A DNA stretch of 63,999 nt, counting the filler, from Circinaria calcarea (taxonomy: Eukaryota), in the NCBI GenBank assembly GCA_051942165.1. It is 5 parts of 5 records of this genome, joined end to end, with 100 filler letters (N's around TTAATTAATTAA, not from the genome) between each part and the next. Parts side by side here need not be neighbours in the genome. Positions count along the whole stretch, not along the records: positions 1 to 12,967 come from JAVECS010000532.1; 4 more parts are not named here. The stretch is one strand, 5' to 3'. A program made the translations under genes and the position numbers. The notes beneath the pieces are model-generated. The model was not told the origin of the DNA. It searched no databases and saw nothing but the letters and a program-made list of their open reading frames with translations. This document shows, one piece after another, positions 1 through 51,931 of this stretch; the first letter of the stretch is position 1; the number at the start of each line of letters is the position of its first letter.

Positions 1-290
1 TTTATTATGAATTTATAAGTGAATAATTATAACGTAAGTGGCAGAGATTTACTTTCGTAATAGTATTATTTTAAGTTACTTATCTAATTACATGCGCTGT
101 CGCTGCTGCCATAGTAATTACTATGGTAGAAATGACAAAAGCTGGTGTGCGCGAGTCGCAAAGAGATTTTGGTTTTCCAAAAAAAAAATTCCGAAAAAAA
201 ATTTCGAAAAAATTTGATGTTGCACTAACGTTAATCCATGCCACCGTAGTAAAGGACTTTTATAAAAAAAAATTTTTTTTTTTTTTTTCC
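1..290. other. AT-rich contig end with A/T tracts and an 18-bp perfect palindrome (CCATAGTAATTACTATGG, 109-126); probable degenerate transposon terminus
   Basis: Very low GC at 1-90, runs of A and T at 178-290, palindrome read directly; no credible ORF. Confidence 0.4.
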
Positions 291-417
291 CGCTTTAAGC
301 TCCGCAATGTTCTGCGGAACCAGCTGAGAGTCCGTGTTTTCCACTCACGATATAAGTAGTTCCGGAGGCTCTTTAAGTAACGAAGTTTTTCCGTCGTACC
401 GGGCCTGTTACCTTAGA

Positions 418-480
418 CTGTATGTATCCATCCCCTGTTTGTATCCATCCCCTGTCTGTATCCATCCCCTGTATATATAC
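418..480. repeat. Short imperfect tandem repeat (TGTATCCATCCCCTGT-like, ~3 copies) upstream of the first gene
   Basis: tgtatccatcccctgt recurs at ~423, ~440 and ~457. Confidence 0.7.
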
Positions 481-559
481 ATCCCCCTTTATATTCCTTT
501 TGTCAATCGGTCCTACACAATCCTTTACCTCTTTCACCATCGCCATCGATATATCCAAA

Positions 560-1642
560 ATGCAATTCAAAGGCTTTGAATACGGCAGCGCATTCGTGCT
601 TCTTGCTTCCTTTATCAACTCCTGCTCTCAATTATGCACTGCCTCGGTAATCGTCGCATCCCAGCGCACTTCAGCTCAGCTACCAGCCTCGCCATTTTTC
701 TCCTTCCCTGCGGGGTATCAAGCAGAAAACATAAGACCTAGAGTAAACGGCCAGATCCTCATCACCGTTAATACGGCACCAGAATTATACCAGATAAATC
801 CTTTGCGTAAGCAGACCGGCGGCCTCGTGCACCGCTTCGAAGGCTATAAAAGCTTATTCGGCATCGTCGAATCGCAGCAAGACGTGTTCTATATCCTTGC
901 TGGTAATTTCTCTGGTTCGCCGGATTTTTACGGCTTTGAAAACTCCTGGAGTGTTTTTAGACTCGACCTCCGCGGTATCCCGGACCCGACTGTCGCTCAA
1001 AGCGCAGTAAAGGTCTCGAAGGTCGTCGATATTCCTCAAGCGCAGCTATTAGATGGTTTCGCTATGATAAATCAGCCGGCCGGTCTCCTGATGACCGGTG
1101 ATTCGCAGACAGGGAGGCTTTATTTAATCGACGTGCAGAGAAATACAGCAGCTGCTGTGCTCCAAGACGAGCTTTTGAACGGCACCAGCCAGGAGCGGGC
1201 CGCCTCACTCGCTCACGTGGGCATCAATGGCATAAAATTCCACGATACCAACCTTTACTTTACAAATACAGCCAAGGGCCTCTACGGAATGGTCCCTATT
1301 AACACTACCTCTGGCAGGCCGGTAGGCAGACCCTCGGTCCTTGCAAACTACGGAACCTACACCGATGACCTAAGCTTCGATCTCCTGGGAAACCAGTTCA
1401 TCTCCGAGCCGCTGAATGGTGTTGTACTGAGGCCGGTCGGCACCACATCTACGAACAATCAGACACGGCTATTGGCAAAGCTGTACGGAGCCAACTCGAA
1501 TGCATTCGGCAGAACATCGATTGATAGGTGTGTCTTGTACTCGACATTCGACGGAGCTCTCTCTGGGCTTGCAAGGATCGATACCAAGGCGGAGGGTTTC
1601 TGCGATGGCGGAAACTCGGTGTCAAGGATAGCAAGCGCATAA
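560..1642 (+). CDS. Secreted six-bladed beta-propeller protein (SMP-30/gluconolactonase-like; resembles the AsR5/EupF hetero-Diels-Alderase-like family)
   Basis: Intronless 360-aa ORF from ATG 560 with a hydrophobic N-terminus (SAFVLLASFINSC). Motifs AENIRPRVNGQILIT, PELYQINP, SLFGIVE, YILAGNFS, GINGIKF..LYFTNT, DDLSFD. Several N-glycosylation sequons (NFS, NGT, NTT, NQT). Confidence 0.75.
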   Translation: MQFKGFEYGSAFVLLASFINSCSQLCTASVIVASQRTSAQLPASPFFSFPAGYQAENIRPRVNGQILITVNTAPELYQINPLRKQTGGLVHRFEGYKSLFGIVESQQDVFYILAGNFSGSPDFYGFENSWSVFRLDLRGIPDPTVAQSAVKVSKVVDIPQAQLLDGFAMINQPAGLLMTGDSQTGRLYLIDVQRNTAAAVLQDELLNGTSQERAASLAHVGINGIKFHDTNLYFTNTAKGLYGMVPINTTSGRPVGRPSVLANYGTYTDDLSFDLLGNQFISEPLNGVVLRPVGTTSTNNQTRLLAKLYGANSNAFGRTSIDRCVLYSTFDGALSGLARIDTKAEGFCDGGNSVSRIASA

Positions 1643-1809
1643 CATACGTCGTTGGAGTCAATATGGAGGCTTTTCATCCATTTCTTCAAGTATACCAAGG
1701 CTCTCTGTAGTATTAGCCACCAGAAATGAATTGTTTGTTAGGCTCGATGAGTTTATCGGTTTCGAGAAAGAGCTAAAATTTCGTCTAATTGATTAATCTA
1801 TGCTTGCTT

Positions 1810-3206
1810 TCAATCCATATGTGGGTATGGCCATCCAATAATTCCGCCAGTCATTTGCTGGCCTGCCTGGATTTCCTGCGCCTGTGCTTTTAGCTCATCA
1901 ACGTCCCAGTTCGCCCACACTACTCTGCCTTTCAGGAAACTGGCCTCCGGGCTGGCCAGCCACACAATAAAGTGTGCAGGTAACTGAACTATAAAAAAGC
2001 AACGTTAGTATAAAATTCTCCAAGGCCTTGGATGAAGTTCACTCTCCAAGTAAGCTTGCAGAAAAGAGCCAGAGAAGTTCCCAACACGCCACCCACCCCA
2101 CCCCATTAGTTAGATAGGGATGCTCCAGGACACTTTGGGTGATTTTCTAGGGGTTTCACATAATGGGCTCCATAGCGTTATCTGGTAGACCCGAAGATTG
2201 GCGAGCTTCATAGTTTCATGGGAGGACGACTTATTCTAGGATCCAGTCTATCACAACCCCACATGGCTATCTGGGGTAACACGGGGTTAAGGTATACCCC
2301 ACCCTACCTCGGAAGCTTAGGGTGGGTACGAGACTTGAAGCAGAGAGAAGTGAAGAACGAAAAGGAGTTATGTTGAAAGTATTAATCACCTTGATCCATT
2401 GGCATGGCATTGGCCTGCCCTCCACTTTTCACAAACATGGCCGTCTCAACCATACCTGGGTGCACACTCGCAACGAAGATATTCGGATTCTCCGCCGCTA
2501 GAAACTCCAGAAATTTGACCTGCGCCAGTTTGGAGCTGATATACGCCGAGAGCCCAGGCAGCATTGCTGGCGGAAGACCAGTCATACCAGTGGTCACTCC
2601 GAGTATCGTGGCGTGGGAGGGATTCGCAGTAGGGAGGAATGTTTTTGTGGTTATCATGGTGCCCTTCACATTCGTCTGGCGAAAAGAATTAGTTAGCAGG
2701 CAATAAGACATACTCGGTCCTGCAGGAAATGCACCTCAAAGCTTTGGCACCAATCATCTACAGGTGCCTGCGCTACTGGGGCAGGATTGGATAGGAATCC
2801 AGCATTCAAAACCAGAATATCCCAAGTCCCTACAGCAGCAGCAATATCTTTCAATGCCTTCTCATCAGTGATGCTAACCGGGTGGATAGAGCAGTTCGCA
2901 TTGTTTGGCGTTAAATGATTCTTCGTTTCTGTGAGATTGGCTTCGTTACGACCTAGGAGAACAAGGTGCTTTACACCGGCGCTCATAAAGGCAAAGGCAG
3001 TTTCCCGCCCAATGCCGCTCCCCTTTTGGTGATGTTAGTGAGTGTTCTCAGTATTATATCAAGGGTTATGGCAAGAGCTAGGACCCTACTGCGCCGGTTA
3101 GAACAACAGTCTTGCCAGCAACGCTCAGTTCAGGCCGTGAAGGCGAAATTGCTGGATATGTATCGTTATGCCACGTTGGCGTCGCTGACGGGAAAGGCGG
3201 CTTCAT
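1810..3206 (-). CDS. Short-chain dehydrogenase/reductase (classical SDR), 4 exons
   Basis: [44 protein letters not shown] (Rossmann TGxxxGxG across an intron), LNAG, catalytic [13 protein letters not shown], final exon [29 protein letters not shown]...GWPYPHMD*. Confidence 0.9.
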
Positions 3207-4762
3207 GATGTTCTTTTGTTCGTTTCTCGAATGCTGAAATATACACTTGAGAATTCTCCAGGGAACGGAGCCCTACTGAGGGGTTCGAGCTTTGAAGATA
3301 TGAGACAGCTGTGATGCATTGAGGTATTAAGGAACGTTTACTTGTTCTTTTGCAGGCCAGTTCTTAGGAAGTGCCTGAAACCTCTACCCAACTTGCAATG
3401 GGTTCGATTTGCTGCGCCTGGTCGATACATCGGATGAGTGATGATCCGGAGATCTAATGCGAACTTTTTATCTTCCAATGGTAAGCTGCATATCGCTTTG
3501 TAAATGCCTCATCGAACAAATATGTGAAGAGCTGCAGGTATGACTGTGCCGTTTGGCCCGAACATTTGGATGCTCTTGATTCCGCTGTTTCTACAAGGTT
3601 TGCATTGCCGTGAAAGTGCAGTCTCGGAAGCAATCACAATCTTGCAGGGGCATGCAAACGGTGCTACCTTGATGGAGATGTTGACTACCTTTAGTATGAA
3701 CCATTGACTTCATGTGTGGCGGGAATTTTCCCGCGCGGGCGGCCTGGATAGGTCTGCTGATGTGTCGCGCCGCTCAGCCGTTAATCACAAGCCGATCCAG
3801 ACTCAGGAGATGTTAGTGTAATCTGCAGCACAGCGGCTCGGGTCGATCCTAGCGTGGATTGGAAAATTTTCCGAGTGGCGGGATTACAGCTCCGCATCAA
3901 TTGGAAGCTGCAAATCTTATGCCACGGGTCAACCTGATGTGTCAAGGTACGGTATGTGCCCTGATACTTGCAGATCGTACTAACTGCTGTTTCCCGTCCA
4001 GCTACGGTACCCACCACGATTGGCCCTCGAGCCGCCCGCTAAGGCTCCCCGAGTACCTTATCTTGAACTGCTGAGGACGGGACGAGGGTACGTGTTGTTC
4101 GTTGCATACATGCTAAACAGGAAGGCCAAGAGCGCAGGGAGCCCTTACTCGGTTTAACCACCAGCACATACTTATGCATATTGTGGTAGACCAAGCAATG
4201 CCGAATGACGGGTCCGTGGCTTCTACGGAGTACCATTTCTATATTGGGCATAGCTCCGTTACAGCCCATAAATATTCCAGTCATGAACTTCTTATGCAGT
4301 CGATCTGCTCCACTCCCTATGTATGTTATTGTGTGCCTCTTAGTTGCAAGATCCCTGTTGGAGTCTCGAGCGCTATTATATTTCTGTGGGCACCGGCACA
4401 GCAACGGCATAGTAGTTGAAATTTGCTCATTATACAGCATGCATGAGCTGAAGAGCCGAGATAAAGCTGAACCGATAAAGTATAAGCATGTTAATCTGTT
4501 CACGCCGTTAAAGATAGCCTCTATTGAATTGGCTATACCGGATTCGACGAGGCTATCCAGACAGTTGTTCCAACCCCTCTCTTTCTATCGCCAGATAGCC
4601 TGCTCAGGTGATGCACTTCTCGGTCTCGATGGATTACACCTACGCTATGCTGTGGTGTGTTTTATTTCATAATTAAAGCATCAAAGCTACAAGAAGAGCT
4701 AAAGTTGTCACGATTCCCATAATAATTAATCCTTTGGCGCAACTCAGAATATCCGTCAAGCA

Positions 4763-5704
4763 ATGTTTCTTCCGCGCCGAGATTTGATGAAGAAACTGGC
4801 ATTCCATCTTCATTCGGTTTGGCTATTTACATTCAGCGACCTCAAAACAATCGTCTTCCCCAGCACGGCTTGCGGCCTTTTCAATGGCATCGCCATCTCT
4901 TTAGCCAACGCCCACACATCCCCCTCACATGATCACCTTTCTTCATACCACCAAATCCTCAGCAGAACTCCCCTGTTACTCTTCTGGGTCTGGGTGAATC
5001 TTCTCCCTTTCGCTATCGACAATCAACGGCAGACTGAAGCCATTCAAGAGGACTCGCTAAACAAGCCTTGGCGGCCTCTTCCTTCTCGAAGAATATCACC
5101 AGAATCTGCCAAGTGGTTAATGCTTATATTTTACTTCGCCGCCGTTGTATTCAGTTATTATCTCGGCAATCTGACTCAATGCTTAACGTTGGTAGTATTT
5201 GGACATTGGTACAACAATCTCCGTGGCGCCGACGGAGGCTTTCTATTACGAAATTTCATCAACGCATGCGGTTTTATCTGTTTCTCCTCAGGGGCCACGC
5301 AACTTGCAATTGGCGAGGGCGCATCTGCGCTCCAGCTCCTTGGATGGTGGTTTTTCGCCATCGCGTGCATAGTCTTGAGCACCGTTCAGACGCAGGATAT
5401 GTATGACCAACGAGGTGACGCTGCTAGGAACCGCAAGACGATACCGCTTACAATAGGCGATACGGCTGCCCGGTGGACGATTGCGATTCCGATGGTCGTG
5501 TGGTCTTGGGTGACGCCTTTCCTGTGGACATCTTCAACAATTGGATATGTTGCGCCCGTAACACTTGGGTTAACCGTTGCGGCGAGGACTTTGACAAAGA
5601 GAAGTGAAAAAGAAGACAAGAACACATTTCGGCTTTGGAATATATGGCTGGTTACGGTGTATCTATTGCCGTTGATCAAGGCGTCGGAGATCTCCTTTGA
5701 TTAA
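4763..5704 (+). CDS. UbiA-superfamily membrane-bound terpene cyclase/prenyltransferase (Fma-TC / beta-trans-bergamotene synthase-like)
   Basis: Intronless 313-aa multi-TM ORF. WLFTFSDLKTI, LPFAIDNQRQ..AIQEDSLNKPWRPLPSRRIS, WYNNLRG and QTQDMYDQRGD..RNRKTIP are the two Asp/Asn-rich Mg-binding motifs of fungal UbiA-type cyclases. Confidence 0.85.
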   Translation: MFLPRRDLMKKLAFHLHSVWLFTFSDLKTIVFPSTACGLFNGIAISLANAHTSPSHDHLSSYHQILSRTPLLLFWVWVNLLPFAIDNQRQTEAIQEDSLNKPWRPLPSRRISPESAKWLMLIFYFAAVVFSYYLGNLTQCLTLVVFGHWYNNLRGADGGFLLRNFINACGFICFSSGATQLAIGEGASALQLLGWWFFAIACIVLSTVQTQDMYDQRGDAARNRKTIPLTIGDTAARWTIAIPMVVWSWVTPFLWTSSTIGYVAPVTLGLTVAARTLTKRSEKEDKNTFRLWNIWLVTVYLLPLIKASEISFD

Positions 5705-5912
5705 AATCAATATATTCTATGCTTTTACGGCGATTCGGATTGTATAGACACTTTTGAATAGAATTATTTATATGCGAAAACTTAGTCATTTCTTCCGAGG
5801 TTTATTGTTTATAAGCTCTATGTTATTTTGAGGGAAACTAATTTGATATTTCTAACTATTATAATTAAATCAACATATCGAGCAGATTATGGCTTCGGGT
5901 TTTTCTATCGTC

Positions 5913-6663
5913 TCAAATTGCATAGAGTCTGGCATGGTACAACTCCGTGTGCCTGATGTCCCTAATCCCCAGCAAGTGATGAATATTCTCCTTGAAATCA
6001 TCACTGTTCGAAAAGCGCGTGTGTGCTTCCACATCGACCCATCCTACGAGATTCAGAAAGACTCTGGCCTTTTCCTCTTCATTCGCCTGAGCTCCAGGGT
6101 TTGGCACCTCTTCCAGCGCCCATCCATCGTAAACAGCCAGCGCCTCCGAACGCTCCATAACAGGCCGCATCTTGTCGACAGATGACATGATAGCATCTTT
6201 GTCAGCGTTGGCAGGAAAGTAAAAGAAGACAATTTCAGTGGCGCCGACTTTGCTATTGGCACCGAGGGCGGGAGATGGGTTCCCAGAGGGAGCAAAAGCA
6301 ACATGGAGAACAGTAACCGATTTTTCGTCCTTGATGATAGCTCGCAGATTGTTGACGTGTGTTTCGTAGCCGCTGTTTATCCGGTCTATTAGCTATCATG
6401 ATATAGTAGCAACACCCTCAATAGACCTCGGCTTACGCTGAGCTCATGAAATTCTTATGGTCTTCGAAAGAGTCCCACCCAACGAAGATGATAGCCATCT
6501 CAGGCTTCTCGATCAACTGGCCAAAGTATGCATAAAGTGCCCCCTTGGCAGTAAGCTCTGATACAAGGCATTGGCGAATCACTTTTCCAGCTGGTGAGCT
6601 AGGATTGATCAGACTGTTTTCGACATCGTCATTGAGCTGGAAGGTTACGATTTCGGTGATCAT
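5913..6663 (-). CDS. ABM/Dabb (dimeric alpha+beta barrel) domain protein, 2 exons, ~225 aa
   Basis: Exon 1 MITEIVTF...YFGQLIEKP...IFVGWDSFEDHKNFMSS, GTAAG intron (~6437-6374), exon 2 GYETHV...ATEIVFFYFP...GWALEE...LVGWVDVEAHTRF. Tandem W-x-S/D-x-E-x-H motifs are typical of duplicated ABM-like fungal proteins. Confidence 0.8.
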
Positions 6664-7011
6664 TTCTGTGGAGTATAAGCAGCGGTTGATGTCGGATAAG
6701 CTAAATTTAAGGTGTCAAGGATCCTCAAACCCAAATTCAACTAGTGGAGACTGTCTGATAAATAATATCAAGCAGAAAATGAAATAGACATATGCGGAGC
6801 ATATTTACAAAAGCCATGACCGATAAAGAAAGAATGATCTTCAGGGTTCAAGCTCTAGGTAGTGTAACCTGACAAGGAGCGTCTAGACTGCTGGTGAGGC
6901 GCGGATCGCTCTGCTTTCAATAATCGCTAAGCCCCCCACTAACACCTGCAGGGAGTCTTGATAGTTTACGCAAATCGGCAGGGGCCGACTTCATAGTTCC
7001 ATATGCCCAAG

Positions 7012-7140
7012 TACAACAGAGTTCGTTTTTAATCTCCGGACGCCGGGATTAAAATAGCAGGGTTTTCCTATAGGGGTACAGCAGTACCCCGCTATAATTT
7101 TGGTGAGGGTGTCCGGAGATTAAAAACGACCCCCCTTGTA
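7012..7140. mobile_element. 125-bp MITE, Tc1/mariner-like (TA target duplication)
   Basis: Perfect 19-bp inverted repeat TCGTTTTTAATCTCCGGAC (7023-7041 / 7111-7129), outer TACAA...TTGTA ends, internal hairpin GGGGTAC-AGCA-GTACCCC. Confidence 0.75.
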
Positions 7141-7304
7141 GCAAAACACGAGATTACTTCGCTAGTTCATGGGTGGAAGCGTAAATTGTGCATAAATTCC
7201 TCGCATAATTAAATTGCACTCAGCTTTTGTTCATCTTGCGTCCTTTGATTTATTTAAAAATTCATTTTATCTACTTGATGATCTCGTCTCTACACACCAA
7301 GCAC

Positions 7305-8564
7305 CTATTGTTTCTGCGCCTCACTGTAAACCTGAACATCATGCTGAACCGTAATAACATGTTGGTCACTTATCCAAGATTCGTTTTCCTCTGAGGTAGG
7401 AGGAAGTCCGTTTGTCGTTCTGGCGATGCTGAAGTTCTTACCCTCCTCAAGCTCGAGAAGAGAACCTGTGCCCAGGGCACTAAACTGCTTTTTCTTGAAG
7501 GGCCGCGATCCTGAACTGCCGATCGTGTGCCGAGCTTCCTTAAGTTGCCTCCGTACGGTAGGCTTTTTTGGAACTCCTCGGATTTTTGAGGCGAATGGTT
7601 TGAGGTATTTTGAGAACAAAGGCACAAGAGTGGGCAAACAAGCGATAATAATGCCGAGCCAGAGCTCAAGGTGGCTCGCAACACCTATATTGCCCAACCC
7701 GTAAACAAAGTCGGCCTTAGTGAGAGATGCGACAGTGATTTGGATTCTCCATCCCATAACCGCAACAACTCTATCGAAAGACATTAGTTGAACATGGAAA
7801 CAATCATTTCATAATAAATGGTAAACTTACAAGAGACCAAGACCGAATAAGCCACTAATAGCGATTTTTTTGCTGGTCCGCATTTGGAGCCTCCATAATG
7901 GCGGCATTGGTAAAATCACAATGATAGTGTCAATTACCATATTCCCGCTAACTGAAAGAATTTGCTCAGTAGTCACCGGCTTACAATATCCGCCTGGAAC
8001 TGGATTCCAGGAGTATGAAATTGGGTGGCAATTGGTAATAAAAACGCAAATAAATGAAATAGCATAGCATGAGATTAGGAACATCACAATCCGTGCAACA
8101 AGCTTGAATATCTTTGTTGTGAAAATGCATGTGTACAGCCAGAGAATCGAAAGCTTAGCAAAGGTTGTTGCAACGAGCCACGAGATACCAACGCCAAGCA
8201 GAATCTAAAAGATATTAAATCAGTTCAGTCATTATACATGGTTGCAGTATATTACCCTGTATTGCACGCCAAGCTCATACTGGGTGAGCTCTGAAGTGTG
8301 GGCACCAAGACCATTGGCAATTCCCCACCAGGTAAGACATTCCGTTGCAAGAGTGCTGATCTTAACTTTTAATAAGCAATGCATTCATAGAGATTTTTGT
8401 TCTGCCACACTTACGTATGCGACAACAATCAAGTAATCATCTGGGCGAAGAGGCCGATCTGTGATCTTGATGGCCCAAAATCGAAGTGCAATGACCAATG
8501 TTATAATAATGGTGAAAATTACCAGCCATATTATGAGTGAGATACCTTGACGGCTTAGCAGCAT
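7305..8564 (-). CDS. Pth11-like / SAT4-family 7-TM integral membrane protein (fungal rhodopsin-like domain), 4 exons
   Basis: ALRFWAIK...LRPDDYLIVVAY, FAKLSILWLY, CHPISYSWN...GYC, DTIIVILPMPPLWRLQM..KKIAISGLFGLG, LELWLGIIIACLPTL. Confidence 0.9.
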
Positions 8565-9771
8565 TGCGACGGATAAACTGTAAGTATTCTTAAGACGACA
8601 AATAAGGCCAGCGAAGATATAATCACGTCTAAGGCGAGGAGCCCTTTTTATAAACCAATAATGCCAATAGCAATTTGAGAACAAGGGTCGCAATGAATTA
8701 AGTAAGACTGCAATATGGTGTGGTCCAACGTGGCAAAGATCCAACATACGATACTCCTTCACAACATCGCCAAGAATGTAGTTAAATACAATACATCGAA
8801 TTTGCACTACATTATACTATTTGTACAGCGTATCGAGGTGCATTGACAACGTAATAATGCGCACTACTGGCGCAGGTTCAACGCATGAATAGGATACCTT
8901 ATTGTAGCCATTACTCCGTAATAAACCCAACCATTGATTTGTCGTGCTACTTCGGCTCCTAACGATACATCCGTGGCAGGCAAGCTAGACTGGAGTAAGC
9001 AGCTGATATCCATTTCCGGAATGCATGGGATTCTCTCACACCACCTCAAAGAATAGACCTGGAATACGCGGGCAGTGCAAGCTGGCTAATCACAAACCCA
9101 GGTCCCGCAAGGCTACGGTTCGGCTCAGACGTTCCAGCTAACGGTGATTGGTTCTAAACGATTGGCCGCCACTCACTATAATAAATCCGGGACGTTCCTT
9201 CAAGACCGGGGGTCTGCAATCATCGCCTATTTTACGCGCCCGGAAATATCCGCTCAGCCCTCGGCCACTAATTGCGGAAATTTGTTTGACAGGGTTTCAT
9301 CCCCACATCCATCTTGATGTGCAACCTGGGAGCTTTCCTAGTCACAAGATCTCTGAACCTCTCCCAGGAAAATGCAAAGCCGCTTCACACCTTTTGGAAT
9401 ATGTATATCACTAGGGAGAGCAAAGGATGCGTGGGCTGATCGGATATTGCGTGGCACGTACTCCGTAATTTAAGGCGAGAACTGCCCAAAAATGTGTGCC
9501 ACGAAATACCCGATCAGCACCTCAACCCTTAACAGCTTCCATCCAGCACTTCTCCAGCTTGTCGTCGCTCTCGTTGTTGAAGGCCGAGACACTGAGTGCC
9601 GCTTGTTCTTACTCTAAACCTTCTGCTAATGGATCGAAACCCACGTCTAACTGCAATGCGAGGATAATCCATATCCTCCCTACAGAGAGTGGTTATACAT
9701 ACCAAGCCGGCCCTATCTCCTTCGCCACGACAAGCCAAACGCAGCGGTCATATTGACTGGTTACCAAAATA

Positions 9772-11837
9772 ATGTCATTGAGTACGAGGTTCCTTGTAGC
9801 GTGTACTGCAGGCCTTACAGCGCATCTTGGTCTCTTTGTTCGGGGAGAGTGGCACATGCAAGCACCTGCGGTGTTTGCCCTCCACATCCTTTTCAGTCTT
9901 CTCACAGTCTTATATGAATTCCGAAAGCTAGACCTCTCGCAGGCGTCTTTTTCGAATGCTCTTACAGTTATCCTTGCCTATTTATTCGGCTTGTACTCCA
10001 GCATCGTTACGTACCGCCTCTCATCCTTTCACCGTTTGCATAGCTTTCCAGGGCCGCGGATGGCAGCTGTCAGCAAGTTTTGGCATGTCTGGCAGTGTCG
10101 GGACTCGCGCAATCATCAGTTGATGGAACGATTACACGGGGAGTATAATAGTGATTTCGTCCGTATCGGTATGACCAAGACATATTCAAACCATAGTAAT
10201 ATAGACTGCAGCTATAGCTGCTTACTGACTACTCTAGGACCGAGTGAACTAGCTTCATTTCATCCGGAATCATTTGTCACTTTGGAAGGGTTTGGAACTC
10301 AGTGTAAAAAGTCTGATTTTTACGACTTGCTGCTACCCGACTTCTCGCTAGTATTTACTCGAGCAAATGATGTGCATAATGCAAGACGTAACGTCTGGAG
10401 CCGAGCTCTTAGTACAAAAGGTAAGATCTGCTATTCGCCTTTCTGCGTAATCATGCTTACCCAGAAATTGCCCAGCCATCTCCTCATATCAGAACAGGAT
10501 TAATCGGCAGATTGAAGTTCTGACAAAAATAATATCAGACTCAGCAGCTGCGCAGAAGCCGGTAGTAATGAACGAAGTTATGTACTGGTACGCCTTCGAC
10601 TCCATGGGCGAGTTTGCCTTTAATCAGGACTTCGGCATGATGCGGCGCCAGGAATGGCATTTTGCTATTACTTTGTTTCGACGTGCACTTTCTATCATCG
10701 GTCCCTTTTCACCGATTATCTGGTTGATCAAAATTGGATTCGCGTTTCTGCCTTGGTTCTGGAAGATCGGAGATTGGTTCGCAATGTTAGCTTTTTGTAA
10801 ACAACAAATGAACAACCGAATAAAGGTTTGTTGCTCATAACTAATAGCAACTATGACTCTGTCTTTTTTTGATCATACCATCTGACTTGATGCACAGACT
10901 ATACCGGAAGAAACAGATATTTCGTCCTTTTTTCTCGACGAGGCCAATAAGGGAAGAGACACCGCAGTTATGCAGAATTGGCTCTCAGGCGACGCAGCAA
11001 CAGTTATAGTTGCCGGGAGGTACGAGATACACATTCGATTTGACATTAAGTTTCCTTTCGTTCTTATCTGTAAAGCCGAACGTGGTCTCTACCCATGACT
11101 AATCCGAGTGAACAGTGACACGACAGCCCCAAGTCTAATATTTCTGTTCTACTGCCTTGCCAAATATCCTGAACATGCAGAAAAGGTATATTCTGAGCTT
11201 GCTGGAGTTGACCCTCTCGACCTTAATGCTGTCTCTACCTTACCTCATCTCAACGGCACTATCAATGAAGCCCAGCGGCTGTATTCTGTAGCGCCCACCA
11301 TAGTCTCCAGAGTGACTCCTCCGCACGGTATAATGATAGGCGATACCTTCATCCCTGGAAATACAAAGGTGCTGGCGCCCCGTTGGGTTGTTTTCAATCG
11401 TAAGTTGATGGATATGACTCTTTGCATTCCCTATTTGGGTCCATGCTAACCCTTTCAAGTGGAGAGTTGCTTCGAACGCTCCAAGGAGTTTATTCCAGAA
11501 CGCTGGTACAGCCGGCCGGAGATGGTGAAGAACAAGCATGCCTTCTCGCCTTTTGGAATGGGTCAGTACTCCATCTGATATAATACCAGTCTCACTTGGT
11601 CTATCTGCAAATGAATGAAAATTGCTAATCAGAGTCCTTGCATCTACAGGACGTGCCAGCTGCGTCGGACAAGGACTTGCAACTGCTCAGTTACGGCTAG
11701 TGATGGCTTCTCTGGTCAAAAAGTTCTACATTCAATTTCTACCAGGCGAGGACGGGAAGGAGGTATTGAGGGATATGAGAGATCAGCTCACAGCGCAGCC
11801 AGGGAAGCTCACTCTTATGTTTGTGCCGCGCAATTAA
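9772..11837 (+). CDS. Cytochrome P450 monooxygenase (multi-exon)
   Basis: N-terminal HLGLFVRGEWH anchor, FPGP, AFDSMGEFAF, I-helix AG|SDTT, EAQR (ExxR), FIPERW, heme motif PFGMG|RASCVG; GT-AG introns visible. Confidence 0.95.
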
Positions 11838-12103: not shown

Positions 12104-12967
12104 TCAATCATCCTCCCCCGGTGCCCATTCAAGAAACCTGAGCGAGGGGTTGAATACCAAATCAAACCCCACTTTCTTCAGTCTGCTCTTCATTACCTGC
12201 CCAATCGCTCCTTCTTCATCCTGCACCCATTTCGCCCTTCCCCATTCCTCATCAGACTCCTCCGGTTCACGGATTCGGCATTGGGCAAAGTCTAGTATCA
12301 CGATCCGGTACTCGTTTTCAGCATGGGACTGGGACCAGGTGGTGACCATGACGTTCGAGGGCCGGACGTCTTCGTTCAGGATTTCCCGGTCGTTGCAGCT
12401 ATGAACAACGCGGATGGCTTGGTCGCAGATGTTTTGCCACGCTTCCTCGGGTGCTTTCTCCGTGATTTCCCCGAGCGTGAAGCCGTCAATGAATTCGAGC
12501 AAAATGCCTTTAACTTCGCCGTACTCCGCTGGCAGAAGAGTCCCTATGGATGGCGGGGACGCCAGTGGCAATCGAACTTTTGTAATAAGCCGAGGAATAT
12601 CATTACCCTGGAGGTCCTGCAACTGGTCGTAGGCGCGGCATTCGCTGTCGTACAGGTCGAGACACTTGCTGTACAGATATACCTCATTCTGACCCAGACC
12701 CCATTTCTCGGAGGACGTCTCTTTCCAAAAGCTGTCTGTGCCCTGGAGGTCCTGCAACTGGTTATGGACTCCGCATTTGCTGTCGTACAGGTCTAGGGGC
12801 TTGTTGTATAGGTGTACCTCATTCTGACCCCAATCCCGTTCCTGGGGGGGCTCCCCTTTCCAGCCCTTGTCTCCCTCCAAGCCCTTGTCTCCCTCCAAGC
12901 CCTTGTCTCCCTCCAAGCCCTTGTCTCCCTCCAAGCCCTTGTCTCCCTCCAAGCCCTTGTCTCCCTC
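12104..12967 (-). CDS. Atypical protein-kinase-like fold protein, 5' end lost at contig end
   Basis: ECRAYDQLQDLQGNDIPRL, GILLEFIDG, catalytic-loop-like ILNEDVRPSNVMV, DFG-like ILDFAQ. Confidence 0.75.
   Translation of the reverse strand, partial: EGDKGLEGDKGLEGDKGLEGDKGLEGDKGLEGDKGWKGEPPQERDWGQNEVHLYNKPLDLYDSKCGVHNQLQDLQGTDSFWKETSSEKWGLGQNEVYLYSKCLDLYDSECRAYDQLQDLQGNDIPRLITKVRLPLASPPSIGTLLPAEYGEVKGILLEFIDGFTLGEITEKAPEEAWQNICDQAIRVVHSCNDREILNEDVRPSNVMVTTWSQSHAENEYRIVILDFAQCRIREPEESDEEWGRAKWVQDEEGAIGQVMKSRLKKVGFDLVFNPSLRFLEWAPGEDD
12863..12967. repeat. 18-bp tandem repeat GCCCTTGTCTCCCTCCAA, at least 5.8 copies (LEGDKG in the kinase frame), running into the gap
   Basis: Read directly from the sequence. 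Confidence 0.95.
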
Positions 12968-13067
12968 NNNNNNNNNNNNNNNNNNNNNNNNNNNNNNNNN
13001 NNNNNNNNNNNTTAATTAATTAANNNNNNNNNNNNNNNNNNNNNNNNNNNNNNNNNNNNNNNNNNNN
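12968..13067. other. Artificial contig spacer (N44-TTAATTAATTAA-N44)
   Basis: Identical 100-nt spacer with stops in all six frames occurs 4 times. Confidence 0.98.
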
Positions 13068-13554
13068 TGTCAGCGAGTATCCTGGGTTGAGCATAACTAC
13101 TTTTATTTCTGCTTGGAAAAGTAACAGACCCTTTTCAAGCTGAATAAAATGTAGTACTCATCCGCAAGCGTTGAAAAGTATATAGTGAGGAGAAAGGGCA
13201 CATGAAGTGGAGAGTAACGAGTATAGGAACGACATGGACGGCCGACTTACCAAGGAACACCACCGGGAGGAGCGTGACAAGAACATCCCAGCATAGCACA
13301 AAATAGGTAAGTGTAGTTCGTTTCCTCAATAACTGGGGTTTAGTTGGCCAGTCTTTGTCGTCATCTTTGTTTTTATATTCATTTAGGCATTCTTCTGTAT
13401 CAATCATTCGATAGGGCCCGTGCGTGGTCGCTGCTGGAACAGGTTTCCGCTTTAAGTTGTGTGACCTTGCGAGAGGGGAAGACTTGGCGTTGGCATGAAA
13501 GACCTGCAAATCATTCGAGCAGGCCTCGTGGCTGAGTGGAGAGGTTGGGCCCAT
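13068..13554 (-). CDS. 5' fragment of a hypothetical membrane protein, truncated by contig end
   Basis: ATG at 13554, TM segment YFVLCWDVLVTLLPVVFL followed by a GTAAGT donor at ~13250. Confidence 0.5.
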
Positions 13555-14260
13555 TTCAACATAGAATGGTTGTTTATCCCGACCGGTTCTATGGGTGGTG
13601 TTGGTCTCGATGCTTGTTTCAAGAGGGATTAACTGTTATTGTGAGAGATCATCAAATCAACCATAAATTTTGGAGGATGGAAATCGGAATAGTAGAGCCA
13701 GAAGAGAATAGATAAGAAAGCGCGCAAAACACAGCCTCAACGTCTACTCCGTAAAGCTGCATGATTTACGCCCCAAAGCAAGTACTTGACAATAAAAAGT
13801 ATATACAGTCTCAAACCCCTACCTGCAGATATGCCTTAGGCAGGTAATAGCCAGTAATCTATGCATCTGTTGACGGCCATTGGCCTTGAGACAGTACGAT
13901 CGTTCTATCTTTAAAGTGGTAGACGTGGGTCAGCCTTATCTGTCTGGCTGCCTGCATAAATACAAAAATAGAATTCTACGTCTGCTCATGTAGCATATGG
14001 TAACCTACAGTGTGCAGTTTTAGGCGATGACGAAACATGAAGCCACATTTATGCGATCCAAGCCTTTTAGAGCAGACATCTGCCGAGCATAGGTACCCTT
14101 CCCGGTTGTTTGTACAACTCCTTGATAACGGAGGTCACCTTCTTTTATCTGTGAGTAATTCCATATCATCGGTATATCCTAGCTGTCCGTAAGAAACTAA
14201 AATTCATTCATCGTATTACGTTTATATGGCAGTTCAACAACTTGGGTATCAACTCATTCC

Positions 14261-15724
14261 CTATATATGAAAAACAAGCACTGCAATAACTCCAATCACA
14301 ATACCAAGCTTCCCCATCCAAAACCACAGTAGCGAACAGAGCCCCAAAAACTTTAGCCAATCCGTGGGGGTCCCTTTATGGTGTATAGTTCCGAATCTGC
14401 TATCGCGTTTCCCTTGCTCCCGTGGATTCATCATGAACGCACAAAGAGTACCGGATAAAGCCTTACCGCCGTTGATGACAAGAGACAGGTAGTGATGGTA
14501 TTGAGGGAGCGGTATCGGTGGACATAACCATTCCTCCCATCGAACGTTGGTAGGATCTTGGATTGCCTCCTCGTATCTCCGCACCCAAAAGGGCGTCAGC
14601 ACTCCATTGCTATCGAACGGTTTGCCCTTCACCATCCATTGCCGCCAGCGTTCGACGACCTCCAGCGCTTTCTCTTCGCTAATCTCGAACCATTCTCCGT
14701 GCTCCCGCGCCACCTGCTTATTCGTCGTCTTGCATTTCCCACAGACAAATTTACGCCGGAGATTGTGCAGCTCGACCTTGATCAGCTTCTCCACCGCGCC
14801 ATAGCCCCTGAATGGCTTGTCGTGTGGGTCTTCCACGATGTTGTAGGGTTGTTTGCAATGGTACTTTTGTTGGGAGACACGGTCCTTGGGTACTTGTATT
14901 GTCATGCCTATTTTAATAAAGCGGGGGCAGGATGGGAGGGTGAAAATATAGATGTAACCGAGATCGGTGTTAGACGGTAGGATATTGCCAGCGTCAACCT
15001 TTTTCTCAAGCTCTCGGCGACGGATTTGACGGAAGAGTTCGTTATTAATCGAATTGGGTTGCATATTTTCTTCATGATAACGTTCGAAACTGGGCACTGC
15101 GTCTAGAACTTGGCTAGTTTCAGGTATGGGTCTAACTTCTCCGGAAAAATTGCTATCTAGATCGAATTCTTGGTCTAGCGGCCTGGAAGAAGTTAAGATC
15201 GTATCATTTTCGATGCTTAGTTGAATGCCGGATATCGCACTCAAATTTTGGAGGATAGACGTAGGTCTTTGCGCTGAAGGTCTCCGTACCCTTGATGGTG
15301 AGCTACCAAGCGTGGAGCTGGCACGTGTTCTTAATTGACCTAAGGGCGATGGAGACGGAGTACCCCGACACCTTTTGCCCAAGTTTGAATGTGCGAAGTC
15401 TGGTGGTGTCAAAGGAGTTGACGCACGCGATATGGATGAGCGATCAGAAATACTCTCAACCTCTGAGGACGGGGATTCGTCAACAAAAGCTTGCTTGGCG
15501 ACCTGAACAGAGGCAATGTATTTGTCTAAGGTCCGAAACTTGGCATGGCTTCTTCTGCGGTCCGTCAACTGTTTAGGCGTCGTTCCTGATCGAGGTCGAT
15601 TTGGTGTCACACTAGTCACGCGGGAGACATCCGAATCAGAAAGCTCGGCTGACGAGTCTCGCCAGCTTCCCGGAATAGGCACAGGGGAGTTGTCGTCGAA
15701 GGCAGAGTTGCTAGTAACGTTCAT
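14261..15724 (-). CDS. T5orf172/MUG113 (GIY-YIG-like) domain protein with disordered N-terminus and C-terminal TM helices
   Basis: GYIYIF...FIKIGMT...RVSQQKYHC...VEKLIKVEL..FVCGKC...HGEWFEI signature; hydrophobic C-terminus. Confidence 0.85.
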   Translation of the reverse strand: MNVTSNSAFDDNSPVPIPGSWRDSSAELSDSDVSRVTSVTPNRPRSGTTPKQLTDRRRSHAKFRTLDKYIASVQVAKQAFVDESPSSEVESISDRSSISRASTPLTPPDFAHSNLGKRCRGTPSPSPLGQLRTRASSTLGSSPSRVRRPSAQRPTSILQNLSAISGIQLSIENDTILTSSRPLDQEFDLDSNFSGEVRPIPETSQVLDAVPSFERYHEENMQPNSINNELFRQIRRRELEKKVDAGNILPSNTDLGYIYIFTLPSCPRFIKIGMTIQVPKDRVSQQKYHCKQPYNIVEDPHDKPFRGYGAVEKLIKVELHNLRRKFVCGKCKTTNKQVAREHGEWFEISEEKALEVVERWRQWMVKGKPFDSNGVLTPFWVRRYEEAIQDPTNVRWEEWLCPPIPLPQYHHYLSLVINGGKALSGTLCAFMMNPREQGKRDSRFGTIHHKGTPTDWLKFLGLCSLLWFWMGKLGIVIGVIAVLVFHI

Positions 15725-16724
15725 GGTGACCGTAGGAAGGACACTGAACTCTCAAGTGGATATAAACTCCGTCCAGGTGGTTAGATAGCCATATAGTTGT
15801 TGAACCCTGTTTTCACTTTATACTTTACTCCGTCCTTGCACACCGCCGTACCATCCGGCCCAGGCCTCATCACTTCCATCGACGGTCTGGCTAAGCCGAG
15901 GGGCTCAGACAGCTCTTGTGATGTCGTAACGCTTTGTGGCTTACAGGAATAGAAAAAATCGGGCCGATGCTGGCTGTTTGAGCCCCTGTATACATACCAC
16001 CCGGGGATTAGCGGCGTCTCGGGCCGTACTTGGCGTAACGATTTCGCGTGGCGCAATCGGGTTGTTAATCTGTGATTGGGCGGGGATGACCGGTCAAGGG
16101 TCCGATGTCAAGGGAATGAAACGGCTTCAGCTTTTGAGAGTTTTGGTTTGCTGTGGGCAGTACATCAAAAAGACATACTAGACAGAGGCTGTGAGTTACC
16201 CGATACGGCCATGACAGATGTGGCCATGGAAAAAGGTTTTCATTAACAACCACACGATCATCTCTGAGAATCGTCGTTTGGTAAATCCATTAGAGATCGC
16301 AAGCTTGTTTCGACAGGCAAGCAAACAATTAGTCGTCGTCGATAGACGGCTCTACTTCCCACTATGGCAAAGAACAAAATGAACCCGAACCCAGCCATCG
16401 CGAACATGAGGGAAGTGACGGAACGAGGTGGCTTCCCCGGTACTTTTGAACATAACAGGGCTCAGCTTCATTCCGTTACCCAAGGAAACTAAACACGCAT
16501 CCACAACCAGCCTAGCGAAAACCTCAAGAGATACCAAATAGCCTCGAATTTCTCGCGAATACGGTAATGAATGATAATGCGTTGCACGAAAAATGCCGCA
16601 CCTTCGATTTCCAGTACACAAACGTCATACTGTACAATACATACCTAAAGTATACTAAGTAGAAGGATACCGTCCGACACTAACGGTCCCTGTCCTCGAT
16701 CTGCGCCATGATTTTACATCTCAA

Positions 16725-25929: not shown

Positions 25930-26029
25930 NNNNNNNNNNNNNNNNNNNNNNNNNNNNNNNNNNNNNNNNNNNNTTAATTAATTAANNNNNNNNNNNNNNN
26001 NNNNNNNNNNNNNNNNNNNNNNNNNNNNN
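25930..26029. other. Artificial contig spacer
   Basis: N44-TTAATTAATTAA-N44. Confidence 0.98.
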
Positions 26030-38889: not shown

Positions 38890-38989
38890 NNNNNNNNNNN
38901 NNNNNNNNNNNNNNNNNNNNNNNNNNNNNNNNNTTAATTAATTAANNNNNNNNNNNNNNNNNNNNNNNNNNNNNNNNNNNNNNNNNNNN
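38890..38989. other. Artificial contig spacer
   Basis: N44-TTAATTAATTAA-N44. Confidence 0.98.
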
Positions 38990-50367: not shown

Positions 50368-51498
50368 ATGTCATTTCCGAGCAGACTTATTTATTCGCAG
50401 CTTCTCTTTACCCCTCCCTATCCTACCAAGCAATTCACCGGACAAACAATCATTGTTACTGGGGCCAACTCTGGCCTTGGGCTTGAAGCCGCACGGCACT
50501 TTGTCCGCCTAGATGCAGAAAAAGTCATACTGGGAGTGCGAAACCTCGACAAGGGCGAGGTCGCCAAGAAATCCATCGAAGCGTCTGAGACGAAGACCGG
50601 TGTGGTAGAGGTCTGGCAACTGGATCTCGCGAGCTATGATTCTGTCAAGAAGTTCGCCAAGAGAGCGGAGGGCCTCAGCAGGCTCGATGTCATGATGCAG
50701 AATGCGGGAATAGTGACAACCAAGTATATGACAATGGAGGACAACGAGTCGTCCCTGACCACGAACGTCATCAGTCCGTTCCTCCTCGGCTTGCTCGTCC
50801 TCCCCAAGCTGCGTGAAACAGCCGTCAAGCTCAACGTCCTCCCTCGCCTCGTCTTCGTCGCCTCTTTCGTCCACTTCCTCACCCAGTTCCCGGAGCAAAA
50901 GGCAAAGAACATCTTTGAAACGCTAAACGACCAGAAAACAGCCAACATGGAGGACAGGTAGTCCAACCCCCTATACACCTTCCCATCTCTAATAACCCAC
51001 TAACCCGCAGTCCTCTGCTCCCTAGATACAACGTCTCCAAACTCCTCGACATCTTCGCCACTCGCGAACTTGCCGCCCTCGCCACCGCATCCTCCAAACC
51101 CGGCCGCCTCGTCATCAACTGCCAGAACCCAGGCTGGTGCGTCTCGGAAATCATGCGTGAGTGGAGCGGCCTCAAGCTTTTGACCTTCAAGGTCTCGAGA
51201 GCACTGTTCGCTCGCACGACGGAGGTGGGCAGCCGAACGCTGATTAACGCGGCCGAGGGCGGCGAGGAAACGCACGGGCAGTACATGGATGACTGTCGAA
51301 TCGGACAGTGAGTATTTTTGTCTCTGGGATACCTTTGTAGCAGAGGATCGAGTGGCATATCACTAACTAACGATCTCATTATTCAGAGTATCTACCCTCG
51401 TCTCGAGCGAGGAAGGGGCAAAGCTACAAAAGAAGGTCTGGGCGGAACTGGCGCAAAAGCTGGAGAAGATCCAGCCCGGTATCATGAAGAATATCTGA
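50368..51498 (+). CDS. Short-chain dehydrogenase/reductase (retinol-DH/WWOX-like), 3 exons
   Basis: IVTGANSGLGLEAARHF, QLDLASYDSV, NAGI, R|YNVSK, NPGWC, ARTTEVGSRTL, HGQYM, KVWAELAQKLEKIQPG. Confidence 0.93.
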
Positions 51499-51831: not shown

Positions 51832-51931
51832 NNNNNNNNNNNNNNNNNNNNNNNNNNNNNNNNNNNNNNNNNNNNTTAATTAATTAANNNNNNNNNNNNN
51901 NNNNNNNNNNNNNNNNNNNNNNNNNNNNNNN
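51832..51931. other. Artificial contig spacer
   Basis: N44-TTAATTAATTAA-N44. Confidence 0.98.

Follow-up and report, generated by a model that had tools for sequence, protein, structure and literature searches.

The stretch of DNA analysed here (the window) comprises 63,999 nucleotides of Circinaria calcarea. It consists of separate contigs joined by artificial N/TTAATTAATTAA/N spacers. The genes described below occupy a single contig of 12,967 bases, and nothing past position 12967 is shown adjacent to them. An earlier note had placed six genes on this contig, and all six are there (Table 1). According to the gene models and splice sites, every reading frame across 560..11837 is unbroken. 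The gene models also bear out the two divergent pairs described before, SDR with UbiA and Pth11 with P450.

Table 1. Features of the contig that carries the six genes.
Feature	Position	Strand	Remarks
Contig start	1..559	.	Positions 1-500 at 36% GC; left limit of view, not a demonstrated border
AsR5/EupfF/PycR1-family six-bladed beta-propeller protein	560..1642	+	One exon, 360 aa
SDR	join(3206..3090, 3022..2735, 2675..2390, 1988..1810)	-	4 exons, 289 aa; splice sites read
UbiA-type (Fma-TC-like) membrane terpene cyclase	4763..5704	+	313 aa from a single exon; core enzyme
Tandem ABM-fold (ferredoxin-like) protein	join(6663..6437, 6372..5913)	-	2 exons, 228 aa; splice sites read
Pth11-like/fungal-rhodopsin-domain membrane protein	join(8564..8415, 8360..8256, 8204..7831, 7770..7305)	-	4 exons, 364 aa; splice sites read
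Cytochrome P450	9772..10168, 10238..10420, 10476..10825, 10898..11019, 11116..11399, 11460..11561, 11650..11837	+	7 exons, 541 aa; splice sites read
Truncated kinase-like ORF	12104..12967	-	Pkinase E 0.0022, 17.9 bits vs cut-off 31.7; Collagen-like match

The UbiA protein matches PF01040 with an E-value of 1.2e-24 (87.4 bits, cut-off 34.2). Its motif II, Q211DMYDQRGD219, fits the pattern QDxxDxxxD of UbiA-type cyclases. In one of these, Tps1A, mutants of D215, D218 or D222 lost product (PMC9835599, available text). Motif I of the window's protein is N87QRQTEAIQED97, with the pattern NQR(x6)ED. It departs from the 9-residue form Nxxx(G/A)xxxD, which the same text gives for Tps1A. Compared with motif I of Pb_BisA, N95QRHPGSVAED105 (form NQRxxGxxxED in the available part of PMC11745945), it has equal length and the same N...ED ends, with a Glu at the G/A position. 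Seven residues of the two motifs (N87, E96, D97, Q211, D212, D215 and D219) are invariant across 121 aligned UbiA sequences. Prenyltransferases instead carry NDxxDxxxD and DxxxD (PMC9835599), and NDxxDxxxD is absent from the window's protein. The earlier note had taken the protein for a cyclase, and motif II and the absence of NDxxDxxxD agree with it. Our assignment to the cyclase type rests on these motifs and on automatic names of homologues. The names are mixed: 'Fumagillin beta-trans-bergamotene synthase', '4-hydroxybenzoate polyprenyltransferase' and 'digeranylgeranylglyceryl phosphate synthase' all occur.

In the source texts available, the products of characterised fungal sesquiterpene cyclases of the UbiA type are bergamotene, bisabolene or bisabolol. 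For Fma-TC alone these texts state a bisabolyl cation, and for the products of P. brasilianum they propose one. The trichobrasilenol synthase TaTC6 had also been counted among the UbiA-type enzymes. This finds no backing in the available text of its paper, which groups TaTC6 with six other 'type I TCs' and makes no mention of UbiA there. According to the same text, TaTC6 was purified from E. coli.

The propeller protein has no Pfam match. A phmmer search against the PDB returns 2p4o (2.8e-13), PycR1 (3.6e-11) and EupfF (2.4e-9). With a profile of the propeller family, PycR1 is matched at E 1e-38 (profile positions 27-338 of 356) and EupfF at 2.5e-35. A Foldseek search with the AF2 model (pLDDT 90.6) places PycR1 (TM 0.73/0.77) and EupfF (0.72/0.76) on top, followed by lactonase propellers. 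By profile and predicted fold, the protein is homologous along its full length to two hetero-Diels-Alderases, PycR1 and EupfF, at about 23% identity to both. The putative lactonase 2p4o, an SMP-30/gluconolactonase/LRE-like family protein, reaches nearly the same scores. The model has a helix at residues 9-22, and hydropathy shows a single hydrophobic segment at 13-31. This N-terminal hydrophobic helix could be a signal peptide or a membrane anchor. The earlier label 'beta-propeller' was correct for the fold but missed the specific AsR5/EupfF/PycR1 family. Membership in this family opens a meroterpenoid reading, which was absent from the earlier note.

In the SDR gene, two exons match adh_short (E 6.5e-13 and 8.8e-9); the gene encodes the motifs TGAGSGIG, NAG and YISSK, and its third intron is 401 nt long. 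The P450 has p450 Pfam matches on three exons and contains the motifs AGSDTT, EAQR and FGMGRASCVG. It aligns over its whole length (1-541 to 1-541, 57% identity) with a 541-aa P450 of Hymenoscyphus (P0185). The Pth11-like protein matches PF20684 on exon 3 (E 1.3e-27, 97.4 bits, cut-off 27) and on exon 4 (5.6e-4). Eight windows exceed the hydropathy threshold, two pairs of them overlapping, as in a multi-pass protein; a CFEM domain is not reported by Pfam.

The ABM label had to be reached through the wider family. The two exons of the ABM-like gene have no Pfam match, and exon 2 alone retrieves nothing in the PDB (E 1.3). Among 20 homologues, the PF03992 score is at or above the cut-off of 23.1 bits in 14 and below it in five, and one has no match. 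The family profile finds the ABM protein 3gz7 in the PDB at 4.9e-9. The model of a 66% identical homologue (P0186, pLDDT 95.9) consists of two alpha+beta repeats, and its closest structural neighbours are putative monooxygenases, an anthrone-oxidase-like protein and PenE. By this transitive route, the window's protein belongs to a predicted tandem ABM-fold family.

The six genes also stay together beyond the window. A divergent relative, represented by L001-L004, holds all six, five of them in the same order and orientation and the P450 inverted. L001-L004 are at least 99.67% identical among themselves and hence count as one relative. Protein identity between the window and L001 is 75% for the SDR, 65% for UbiA, 62% for the propeller, 56% for ABM, 55% for the P450 and 54% for Pth11. 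Intergenic DNA gives no blastn match between the two. The L001 cluster also contains an extra BBE-type (BBE/FAD_binding_4) FAD oxidase, which the window's cluster does not have. Judged from these sequences, the six-gene grouping exceeds chance, because it is kept in a relative at just 54-75% protein identity.

Beyond L001, linkage comprises UbiA and the propeller, plus the P450 once; full six-gene synteny occurs in one independent relative. In three lichen fungi, locus tags put the propeller and UbiA two genes apart: Alectoria (005467/005469), Trapelia (004254/004256) and Variospora (002008/002006). In Variospora the P450 (002004) is close to both. Indirectly, 13 of the 55 non-self propeller matches report the same longest-contig size as a listed UbiA match. 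In a UbiA tree of 121 rows, made up of the window's protein and uncharacterised homologues only, all 14 propeller-linked proteins fall into one clade of 43 rows with an SH-like support of 98. Propeller linkage is absent from the other 75 rows. The propeller family is small (56 matches, self included) and linked to one UbiA clade only. That clade also contains UbiA proteins of the Leotiomycetes Botryotinia convoluta (57%), Rutstroemia (59%) and Lachnellula (64%). No Leotiomycete protein is among the 56 propeller matches, and hence the propeller seems to have been added in the lichen-fungus version. On the contig of a more distant UbiA paralogue (L005), a P450 homologue again adjoins the UbiA gene. 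Co-conservation had been named earlier as a check of the cluster; synteny with L001, locus tags and the UbiA tree have the genes staying together across lichen-forming fungi.

Several known systems resemble the cluster in part. In the available literature, the fumagillin (fma) cluster of Aspergillus fumigatus likewise has a UbiA-type membrane cyclase (Fma-TC) as its core, together with a P450 (Fma-P450). The fma cluster also has the SDR-type reductase Fma-KR and the ABM-fold protein Fma-ABM; compared by gene class, both are common to fma and the window's cluster. The fma cluster differs by a polyketide synthase, an acyltransferase, a C6 hydroxylase and a methyltransferase beside the cyclase. 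Neither the 12,967-base contig nor L001 shows a polyketide synthase, acyltransferase, non-haem dioxygenase (the C6 hydroxylase class) or methyltransferase. Conversely, fma is not known to contain an AsR5/EupfF-like propeller or a Pth11-like gene.

The same logic of a UbiA-type cyclase with a P450 is seen in the HEx 'UTC' clusters, such as Botrytis cinerea TC3 and Trichoderma virens TC1. Among 13 such clusters expressed in yeast, five gave oxidised sesquiterpenoids, one of them from Botrytis (PMC5895447, available text). The UbiA-type bisabolene synthases of basidiomycetes and Penicillium (Tps1A, Tps2A and Pb_BisA) share motif II QDxxDxxxD and P450 tailoring with the window, and Pb_BisA also shares the spacing of motif I (PMC11745945). 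Their clusters differ: tps1 has a methyltransferase, and the available texts list no propeller, ABM or Pth11 gene.

The tropolone-sesquiterpenoid clusters for xenovulene, eupenifeldin and pycnidione contain the propellers AsR5, EupfF and PycR1, to which the window's propeller is homologous over nearly its full length, with the same predicted six-bladed fold. As described in the available sources, the neighbours of the propeller there likewise include a non-canonical sesquiterpene cyclase as well as a P450 and an SDR. However, that cyclase is of the AsR6 type, whereas here it is of the UbiA type, and the propellers share only the low identity given above. Moreover, an NR-PKS, a TropB-like FMO, a TropC-like dioxygenase and an AsR6-type humulene synthase are all missing from the 12,967-base contig and from L001's 20.9 kb.

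We consider it likely that the six genes form a functional biosynthetic cluster, that lichen-forming fungi have conserved it, and that its product is an oxidised metabolite derived from a sesquiterpene. We infer the chemistry and the product as follows. The membrane UbiA-type cyclase would ionise farnesyl diphosphate via two Mg-binding Asp motifs and then cyclise it. The P450 would oxygenate the resulting hydrocarbon, and the SDR would interconvert alcohol and ketone. The cofactor-free tandem ABM protein may catalyse an oxygenation or an isomerisation. The AsR5/EupfF/PycR1-like propeller might act on the oxidised terpene, either by dehydrating it or by closing a ring in a pericyclic reaction. 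The Pth11-like membrane protein could serve in export, self-protection or sensing. In some relatives the BBE-type FAD oxidase would be added. No description of the cluster was found in the papers searched. Together with the motifs and the co-conservation, this supports the original proposal, in which a UbiA-type cyclase is the core of an uncharacterised cluster for oxidised sesquiterpenoids. The cluster is an uncharacterised version of a known type, the UbiA-cyclase cluster.

Alternatively, the product could be a meroterpenoid. The propeller would then be a hetero-Diels-Alderase that joins a UbiA-derived sesquiterpene, as dienophile, to the quinone methide of a phenolic partner, whose genes would lie outside the contig or elsewhere in the genome. 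This is suggested by the sole characterised relatives of the propeller, which in the available sources are hetero-Diels-Alderases whose substrates are a tropolone quinone methide and a sesquiterpene, either humulene or hydroxyhumulene; the quinone methide itself is also formed by EupfF. Oxidases of the BBE/FAD_binding_4 class can generate quinone methides, and L001 carries one. Furthermore, only 560 bases of contig precede the propeller gene, and therefore a PKS could lie beyond. Against this stand the lack of a PKS and of other tropolone-pathway genes in the contig and in L001, the missing BBE oxidase in the window and an identity to PycR1 and EupfF of only about 23%. With 2p4o scoring almost equally, the fold alone leaves the reaction unfixed. 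We regard the meroterpenoid pathway as unlikely. A narrower form of it is a long shot: the propeller could be a pericyclase outside tropolone chemistry that fuses the UbiA-derived sesquiterpene to a quinone methide from the phenolic metabolism of lichen fungi, and in some species a co-clustered BBE-type oxidase would aid the formation of this quinone methide. If true, the products would be lichen meroterpenoids of a class not yet recognised. A role in symbiosis signalling would then be suggested by the conservation in many Lecanoromycete families and by the co-clustered Pth11-like receptor-type protein.

It is improbable that the UbiA protein is an aromatic prenyltransferase that puts a farnesyl or other prenyl chain on a small aromatic acid, with the neighbouring genes modifying the product. 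PF01040 is the Pfam family of prenyltransferases, the best PDB match of the protein is the prenyltransferase 6m31 (E 0.018), and several sources call close homologues '4-hydroxybenzoate polyprenyltransferase'. Fungal clusters with UbiA-like prenyltransferases and without a PKS are also known (PMC11109268, available text). Such automatic names are family-level transfers, however, and motif II is that of characterised cyclases and not of transferases, while motif I shares length and ends with that of Pb_BisA. In addition, neither the contig nor L001 holds a Pyr4-type cyclase or another enzyme that cyclises a prenylated aromatic. Even more improbable is that the genes share no pathway and merely adjoin one another, their linkage being gene order inherited within one fungal class. 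Six-gene synteny is complete in a single independent relative, and no chemical role is obvious for the Pth11-like gene, as such a reading would have it. But the gene set is kept even though intergenic DNA is unalignable, and the P450 stayed within the block despite its inversion and the insertion of an oxidase. The small propeller family occurs with a single UbiA clade, a P450 homologue is adjacent again on L005, and the five enzymes are all of classes typical for terpene tailoring.

The edges claimed for the cluster are contig ends and not demonstrated borders, and thus sequence outside the contig could hold a second core enzyme. On the right, a kinase-like gene had been taken as the boundary. 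The ORF is present, but its Pkinase score is below the Pfam cut-off and the boundary is the contig end, which cuts the ORF inside an 18-base tandem repeat. It has no tblastx match in L001-L004. Because it is not conserved beside the cluster in L001, the ORF probably lies outside the cluster. On the left, the supposed AT-rich boundary amounts to merely some 500 bases at the contig start. As a separate observation, the place in L001 that matches the window's low-GC left edge is taken up by a 5-kb block with a GC content of 22-28%.

The DNA holds six genes with uninterrupted reading frames, grouped around a UbiA-type enzyme. We rate this cluster as a variant of the known UbiA-cyclase cluster type, set apart by its propeller protein and by its breadth in lichen-forming fungi. 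The earlier note had claimed the six genes and two divergent pairs (SDR with UbiA, Pth11-like with P450). Pfam together with the reading of splice sites finds all six, and the gene models confirm both pairs. Exon borders are splice sites chosen by eye from three-frame displays. A 541-aa P450 from Hymenoscyphus fraxineus matches the P450 model from end to end (57% identity, residues 1-541 on 1-541). Class motifs can be read in the SDR (TGAGSGIG, NAG, YISSK) and in the P450 (AGSDTT, EAQR, FGMGRASCVG).

Coordinates of the cluster genes and of other features in the window, with the counterparts on L001, a metagenome contig carrying a related cluster. Window positions are those of the Pfam match where there is one; identity is that between L001 and window.
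Feature	Window position	Pfam result	Length	Exons	L001 position	Identity
Propeller	560-1642 (+)	no match	360 aa	one	6365-7408	62%
SDR	2382-3034 (-)	adh_short, on two exons	289 aa	four	7576-8715	75%
UbiA protein	4763-5704	PF01040, E 1.2e-24	313 aa	one	10001-10951	65%
ABM-like	5913-6714	no match	228 aa	two	11037-11820	56%
Pth11-like	7827-8204	PF20684 (fungal rhodopsin/Pth11), E 1.3e-27	364 aa	four	12586-13837	54%
P450	10451-11837 (+)	p450, on three exons	541 aa	seven	17649-19761	55%
Berberine-bridge-like oxidase		FAD_binding_4 + BBE			15275-17142 (+)	
SDR intron 3	1989-2389 (-)		401 nt			
Stop-to-stop ORF	4039-4584 (-)		181 aa			
18-base repeat, about six copies	12850-12967					
ORF, second piece	14261-15751 (-)	T5orf172 / MUG113 (GIY-YIG-like), E 2.8e-18	496 aa			
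Second SDR, fourth piece	50362-50958 (+)	adh_short, E 1.3e-18				
Long ORF, fifth piece	54341-56629 (+)	PARP catalytic + UQ_con (ubiquitin-conjugating)				
PDR/CDR-type ABC transporter, fifth piece	57769-62492 (+)			several		

The third intron of the SDR gene has a perfect TACTAAC branch site; in its place L001 has a gap of about 120 nt. With blastn against the window and the metagenome loci the intron matches only itself; hence there is no sign of a repeat insertion. The intergenic regions, searched in the same way, also match only themselves, besides one inverted 40-nt match (80%) in positions 1-560. The 181-aa ORF in the 1.56-kb region between SDR and UbiA has no tblastx match in L001 and is thus probably not a gene.

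Judging by its motifs, the UbiA protein is probably a terpene cyclase. According to the text available for PMC9835599, UbiA-type terpene synthases are recognised by Nxxx(G/A)xxxD as motif I and QDxxDxxxD as motif II; prenyltransferases have NDxxDxxxD and DxxxD instead, and Tps1A loses its product when Asp residues of the motifs are mutated. Excerpts of PMC11745945 give the motifs of Pb_BisA from Penicillium brasilianum as N95QRHPGSVAED105 and QD219MYD222QPGD226. The window protein has N87QRQTEAIQED97 and Q211DMYDQRGD219. Its motif II fits the consensus exactly, its motif I resembles that of Pb_BisA in length and at both ends, with Glu where G/A is expected, and the transferase motif NDxxDxxxD is absent from the protein. 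Twelve residues (N87, E96, D97, N100, K101, W103, R104, Q211, D212, D215, G218 and D219) are invariant when the window protein is aligned with its best 120 relatives.

These 120 come from 648 relatives at E ≤ 0.001 (among 2,767 candidates; top identity 72%). The named ones are for the most part fungi that form lichens (Alectoria, Trapelia, Heterodermia, Variospora, Letharia), along with some Leotiomycetes, Sordariomycetes and Arthroderma. The PDB contains no close relative: the best match is a weak one to DGGGP synthase (E 0.018), followed by chance matches to antibodies. The protein atlas returns only generic 'UbiA prenyltransferase' clusters. One comparison in the earlier note, namely that trichobrasilenol-type synthases are UbiA enzymes, finds no support: in the portion of PMC7687074 available, TaTC6 is a type I cyclase that was obtained pure from E. 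coli, and UbiA goes unmentioned.

The cluster genes are conserved together, as the proposal of a cluster had implied. Searched against metagenome contigs, the UbiA protein yields eight loci. Four of them (L001-L004) share at least 99.67% identity with each other and hence represent one relative, which has all six genes. Five genes, from the propeller to the Pth11-like gene, keep the same order and orientation in L001 and the window. The P450 gene is inverted in L001 relative to the window, and an additional berberine-bridge-like oxidase gene separates it from the Pth11-like gene. The window contains no counterpart of this oxidase (best tblastn E-value 0.2). Intergenic DNA of L001 and the window does not align. 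Among the other loci, which carry UbiA paralogues, L005 (a 2.5-kb contig; UbiA identity 48%) has an adjoining P450 homologue, and L006-L008 (47-53%) contain none of the other five genes.

Linkage of the UbiA and propeller genes extends to named lichen fungi. Judging by locus tags, the two lie two genes apart in Alectoria sarmentosa (005467/005469), Trapelia coarctata (004254/004256) and Variospora velana (002008/002006, with the P450 at 002004). A more indirect indication is that at least 13 of the 55 non-self propeller matches, these three species included, share their longest-contig value with one of the best 120 UbiA relatives. In a FastTree phylogeny of the window protein and these 120 (rooted at the midpoint for display only), all 14 propeller-linked UbiA rows fall into a single clade of 43 rows (SH-like support 98), which also includes Botryotinia, Rutstroemia and Lachnellula; the other 75 rows include no propeller-linked protein. 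None of 500 label shuffles produced as few changes as the observed linkage pattern. For the P450, a query with exon 3 (116 aa) returns nine proteins among 67 candidates, which says little about the breadth of its linkage.

The propeller belongs to a small family (56 proteins at E ≤ 0.001, including the window's own), and its 15 better-scoring named relatives (33-67% identity) come from lichen-forming fungi, except for Zasmidium. As a single sequence it matches 2p4o (2.8e-13), PycR1 (3.6e-11) and EupfF (2.4e-9) in the PDB. A 40-member profile places PycR1 (1e-38) and EupfF (2.5e-35) first, near full length, followed by 2p4o (6.7e-33). The AlphaFold2 model (pLDDT 90.6) has an N-terminal helix (residues 9-22) and is all-beta thereafter. 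Foldseek ranks PycR1 (TM 0.73/0.77, 23% identity) and EupfF (0.72/0.76) highest, then an SMP-30/gluconolactonase-like protein and other six-bladed lactonases. PycR1, EupfF and AsR5 are described in the accessible parts of PMC7814671 and PMC9503010 as hetero-Diels-Alderases of tropolone sesquiterpenoid pathways; EupfF makes the tropolone o-quinone methide and couples hydroxyhumulene to it. An excerpt of PMC11109268 lists AsR5 as a biosynthetic enzyme without a Pfam domain, in agreement with the blank Pfam result for the window propeller.

The ABM label of the earlier note holds, by way of the protein family. Exon 2 by itself has no match in the PDB (E 1.3). A full scan of 1.84 billion representatives with it retrieves 150 proteins at E ≤ 0.001, of which 40 reach ≤ 1e-10 and 14 reach ≤ 1e-30. 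In a Pfam scan of 20 homologues, most of them full-length, PF03992 passes its cut-off in the N-terminal half of 14, stays below it in five and is missing from one. A profile of 33 homologues matches the putative ABM monooxygenase 3gz7 (E 4.9e-9). The closest homologue, P0186 (66% identity over exon 2), folds into two alpha+beta repeats (pLDDT 95.9), and its nearest structures, at a TM of about 0.6, are the putative monooxygenases 3f44 and 3mcs, the anthrone-oxidase-like 5f9p and the monooxygenase PenE (9kdp).

Taken together, the enzyme classes suggest a short pathway. The UbiA cyclase would ionise FPP at its two Asp motifs and release a bisabolyl-derived hydrocarbon or alcohol. We expect such a product because characterised fungal sesquiterpene cyclases of the UbiA type make bergamotene (Fma-TC), alpha-bisabolene (Tps1A/2A), alpha-bisabolol (BibS) and gamma-bisabolene (Pb_BisA), and a bisabolyl cation is stated for Fma-TC and, for the P. 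brasilianum compounds, put forward as a proposal (available text of PMC9835599 and PMC11745945, among other sources). Most likely, the P450 would then oxygenate the cyclase product, the SDR would carry out a redox step, the ABM protein a cofactor-free oxygenation or isomerisation, and the propeller a dehydration or pericyclic step. The general logic has a precedent: the HEx study, in the part accessible to us, counts 326 UbiA-like cyclase clusters in public genomes and obtained oxidised sesquiterpenoids from 5 of 13 expressed clusters (PMC5895447).

Of the rival readings, the most interesting makes the product a meroterpenoid: the propeller would be a true hetero-Diels-Alderase, and the phenolic half would come from elsewhere. 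The only relatives of the propeller that have been characterised catalyse just this reaction, and with a sesquiterpene. However, neither the 12,967-base contig of the cluster nor the 20.9 kb of L001 contains a tropolone or PKS gene, the propeller shares about 23% identity with the characterised relatives, and the score of a lactonase-like protein comes close to theirs. Two further alternatives are disfavoured. The motifs of the UbiA protein speak against a role as prenyltransferase. That the six genes are mere neighbours is hard to reconcile with a gene set that has outlasted sequence divergence, one inversion and one insertion.

A pathway centred on the UbiA cyclase would work like those of fumagillin-type and HEx-type clusters. 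Unlike the fumagillin cluster, this one is without PKS, acyltransferase, dioxygenase and methyltransferase genes, both in its contig and in L001. As a class, clusters that combine a UbiA-type cyclase and a P450 are already known. Yet the gene set is undescribed in the literature we searched on fungal, lichen and Botrytis UbiA-type cyclases, Diels-Alderases and EupfF/PycR1 (MIBiG and some supplements lie outside this scope), and in it this is the first case of an AsR5/EupfF/PycR1-type propeller beside a UbiA-type cyclase without tropolone genes. The conserved Pth11-like membrane protein also distinguishes this version of the cluster, which has been kept across many families of lichen-forming fungi.

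Judging by the named matches and the lack of relevant literature found, terpenoid genetics of lichen fungi has hardly been studied. These fungi grow slowly and are difficult to manipulate. Hence this gene set, compact at about 7.3 kb of coding sequence and with all six genes intact, is a practical target for heterologous expression, which could bring to light a sesquiterpenoid scaffold and a reaction of the hetero-Diels-Alderase fold that are both new.

The cluster occupies one entire contig: the longest contig reported for the window's propeller protein is 12,967 bases, equal to the first of the window's five pieces (12,967, 12,862, 12,860, 12,842 and 12,068 bases). The pieces are separated by N-runs (12968-13067, 25930-26029, 38890-38989, 51832-51931) laid out as 44 N, 12 bases and 44 N, the 12 bases being TTAATTAATTAA in the first spacer, the one that was read. 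The window thus looks like separate contigs of similar size, strung together artificially with a stop-codon spacer, so that adjacency across spacers is not real. A right border made of the housekeeping genes beyond 12 kb (LAA1/HEATR5, TACO1, DHHC and others) was dropped, since the intervening spacers make these genes uninformative. The PARP/UQ_con ORF and the ABC transporter that follows it are likewise not on the cluster's contig, and the position of the second SDR is unrelated to the cluster.

Of the borders claimed earlier, low-GC DNA on the left and a kinase-like ORF on the right are both present, but both coincide with contig ends. On the right, the contig stops inside the 18-base tandem repeat within the kinase-like ORF, whose Pkinase match (E 0.0022) is under the Pfam cut-off. 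On the minus strand this repeat encodes a collagen-like stretch of the GDKGLE type at the N-terminal end of the truncated ORF. On the left, the contig starts 559 bases ahead of the propeller gene, with 36% GC. L001 has 5 kb of 22-28% GC (501-5500) immediately left of the propeller side, as in RIP-mutated repeats. A low-GC left flank is therefore common to both, in the same relative position, and probably explains the assembly break at the start of the window contig.
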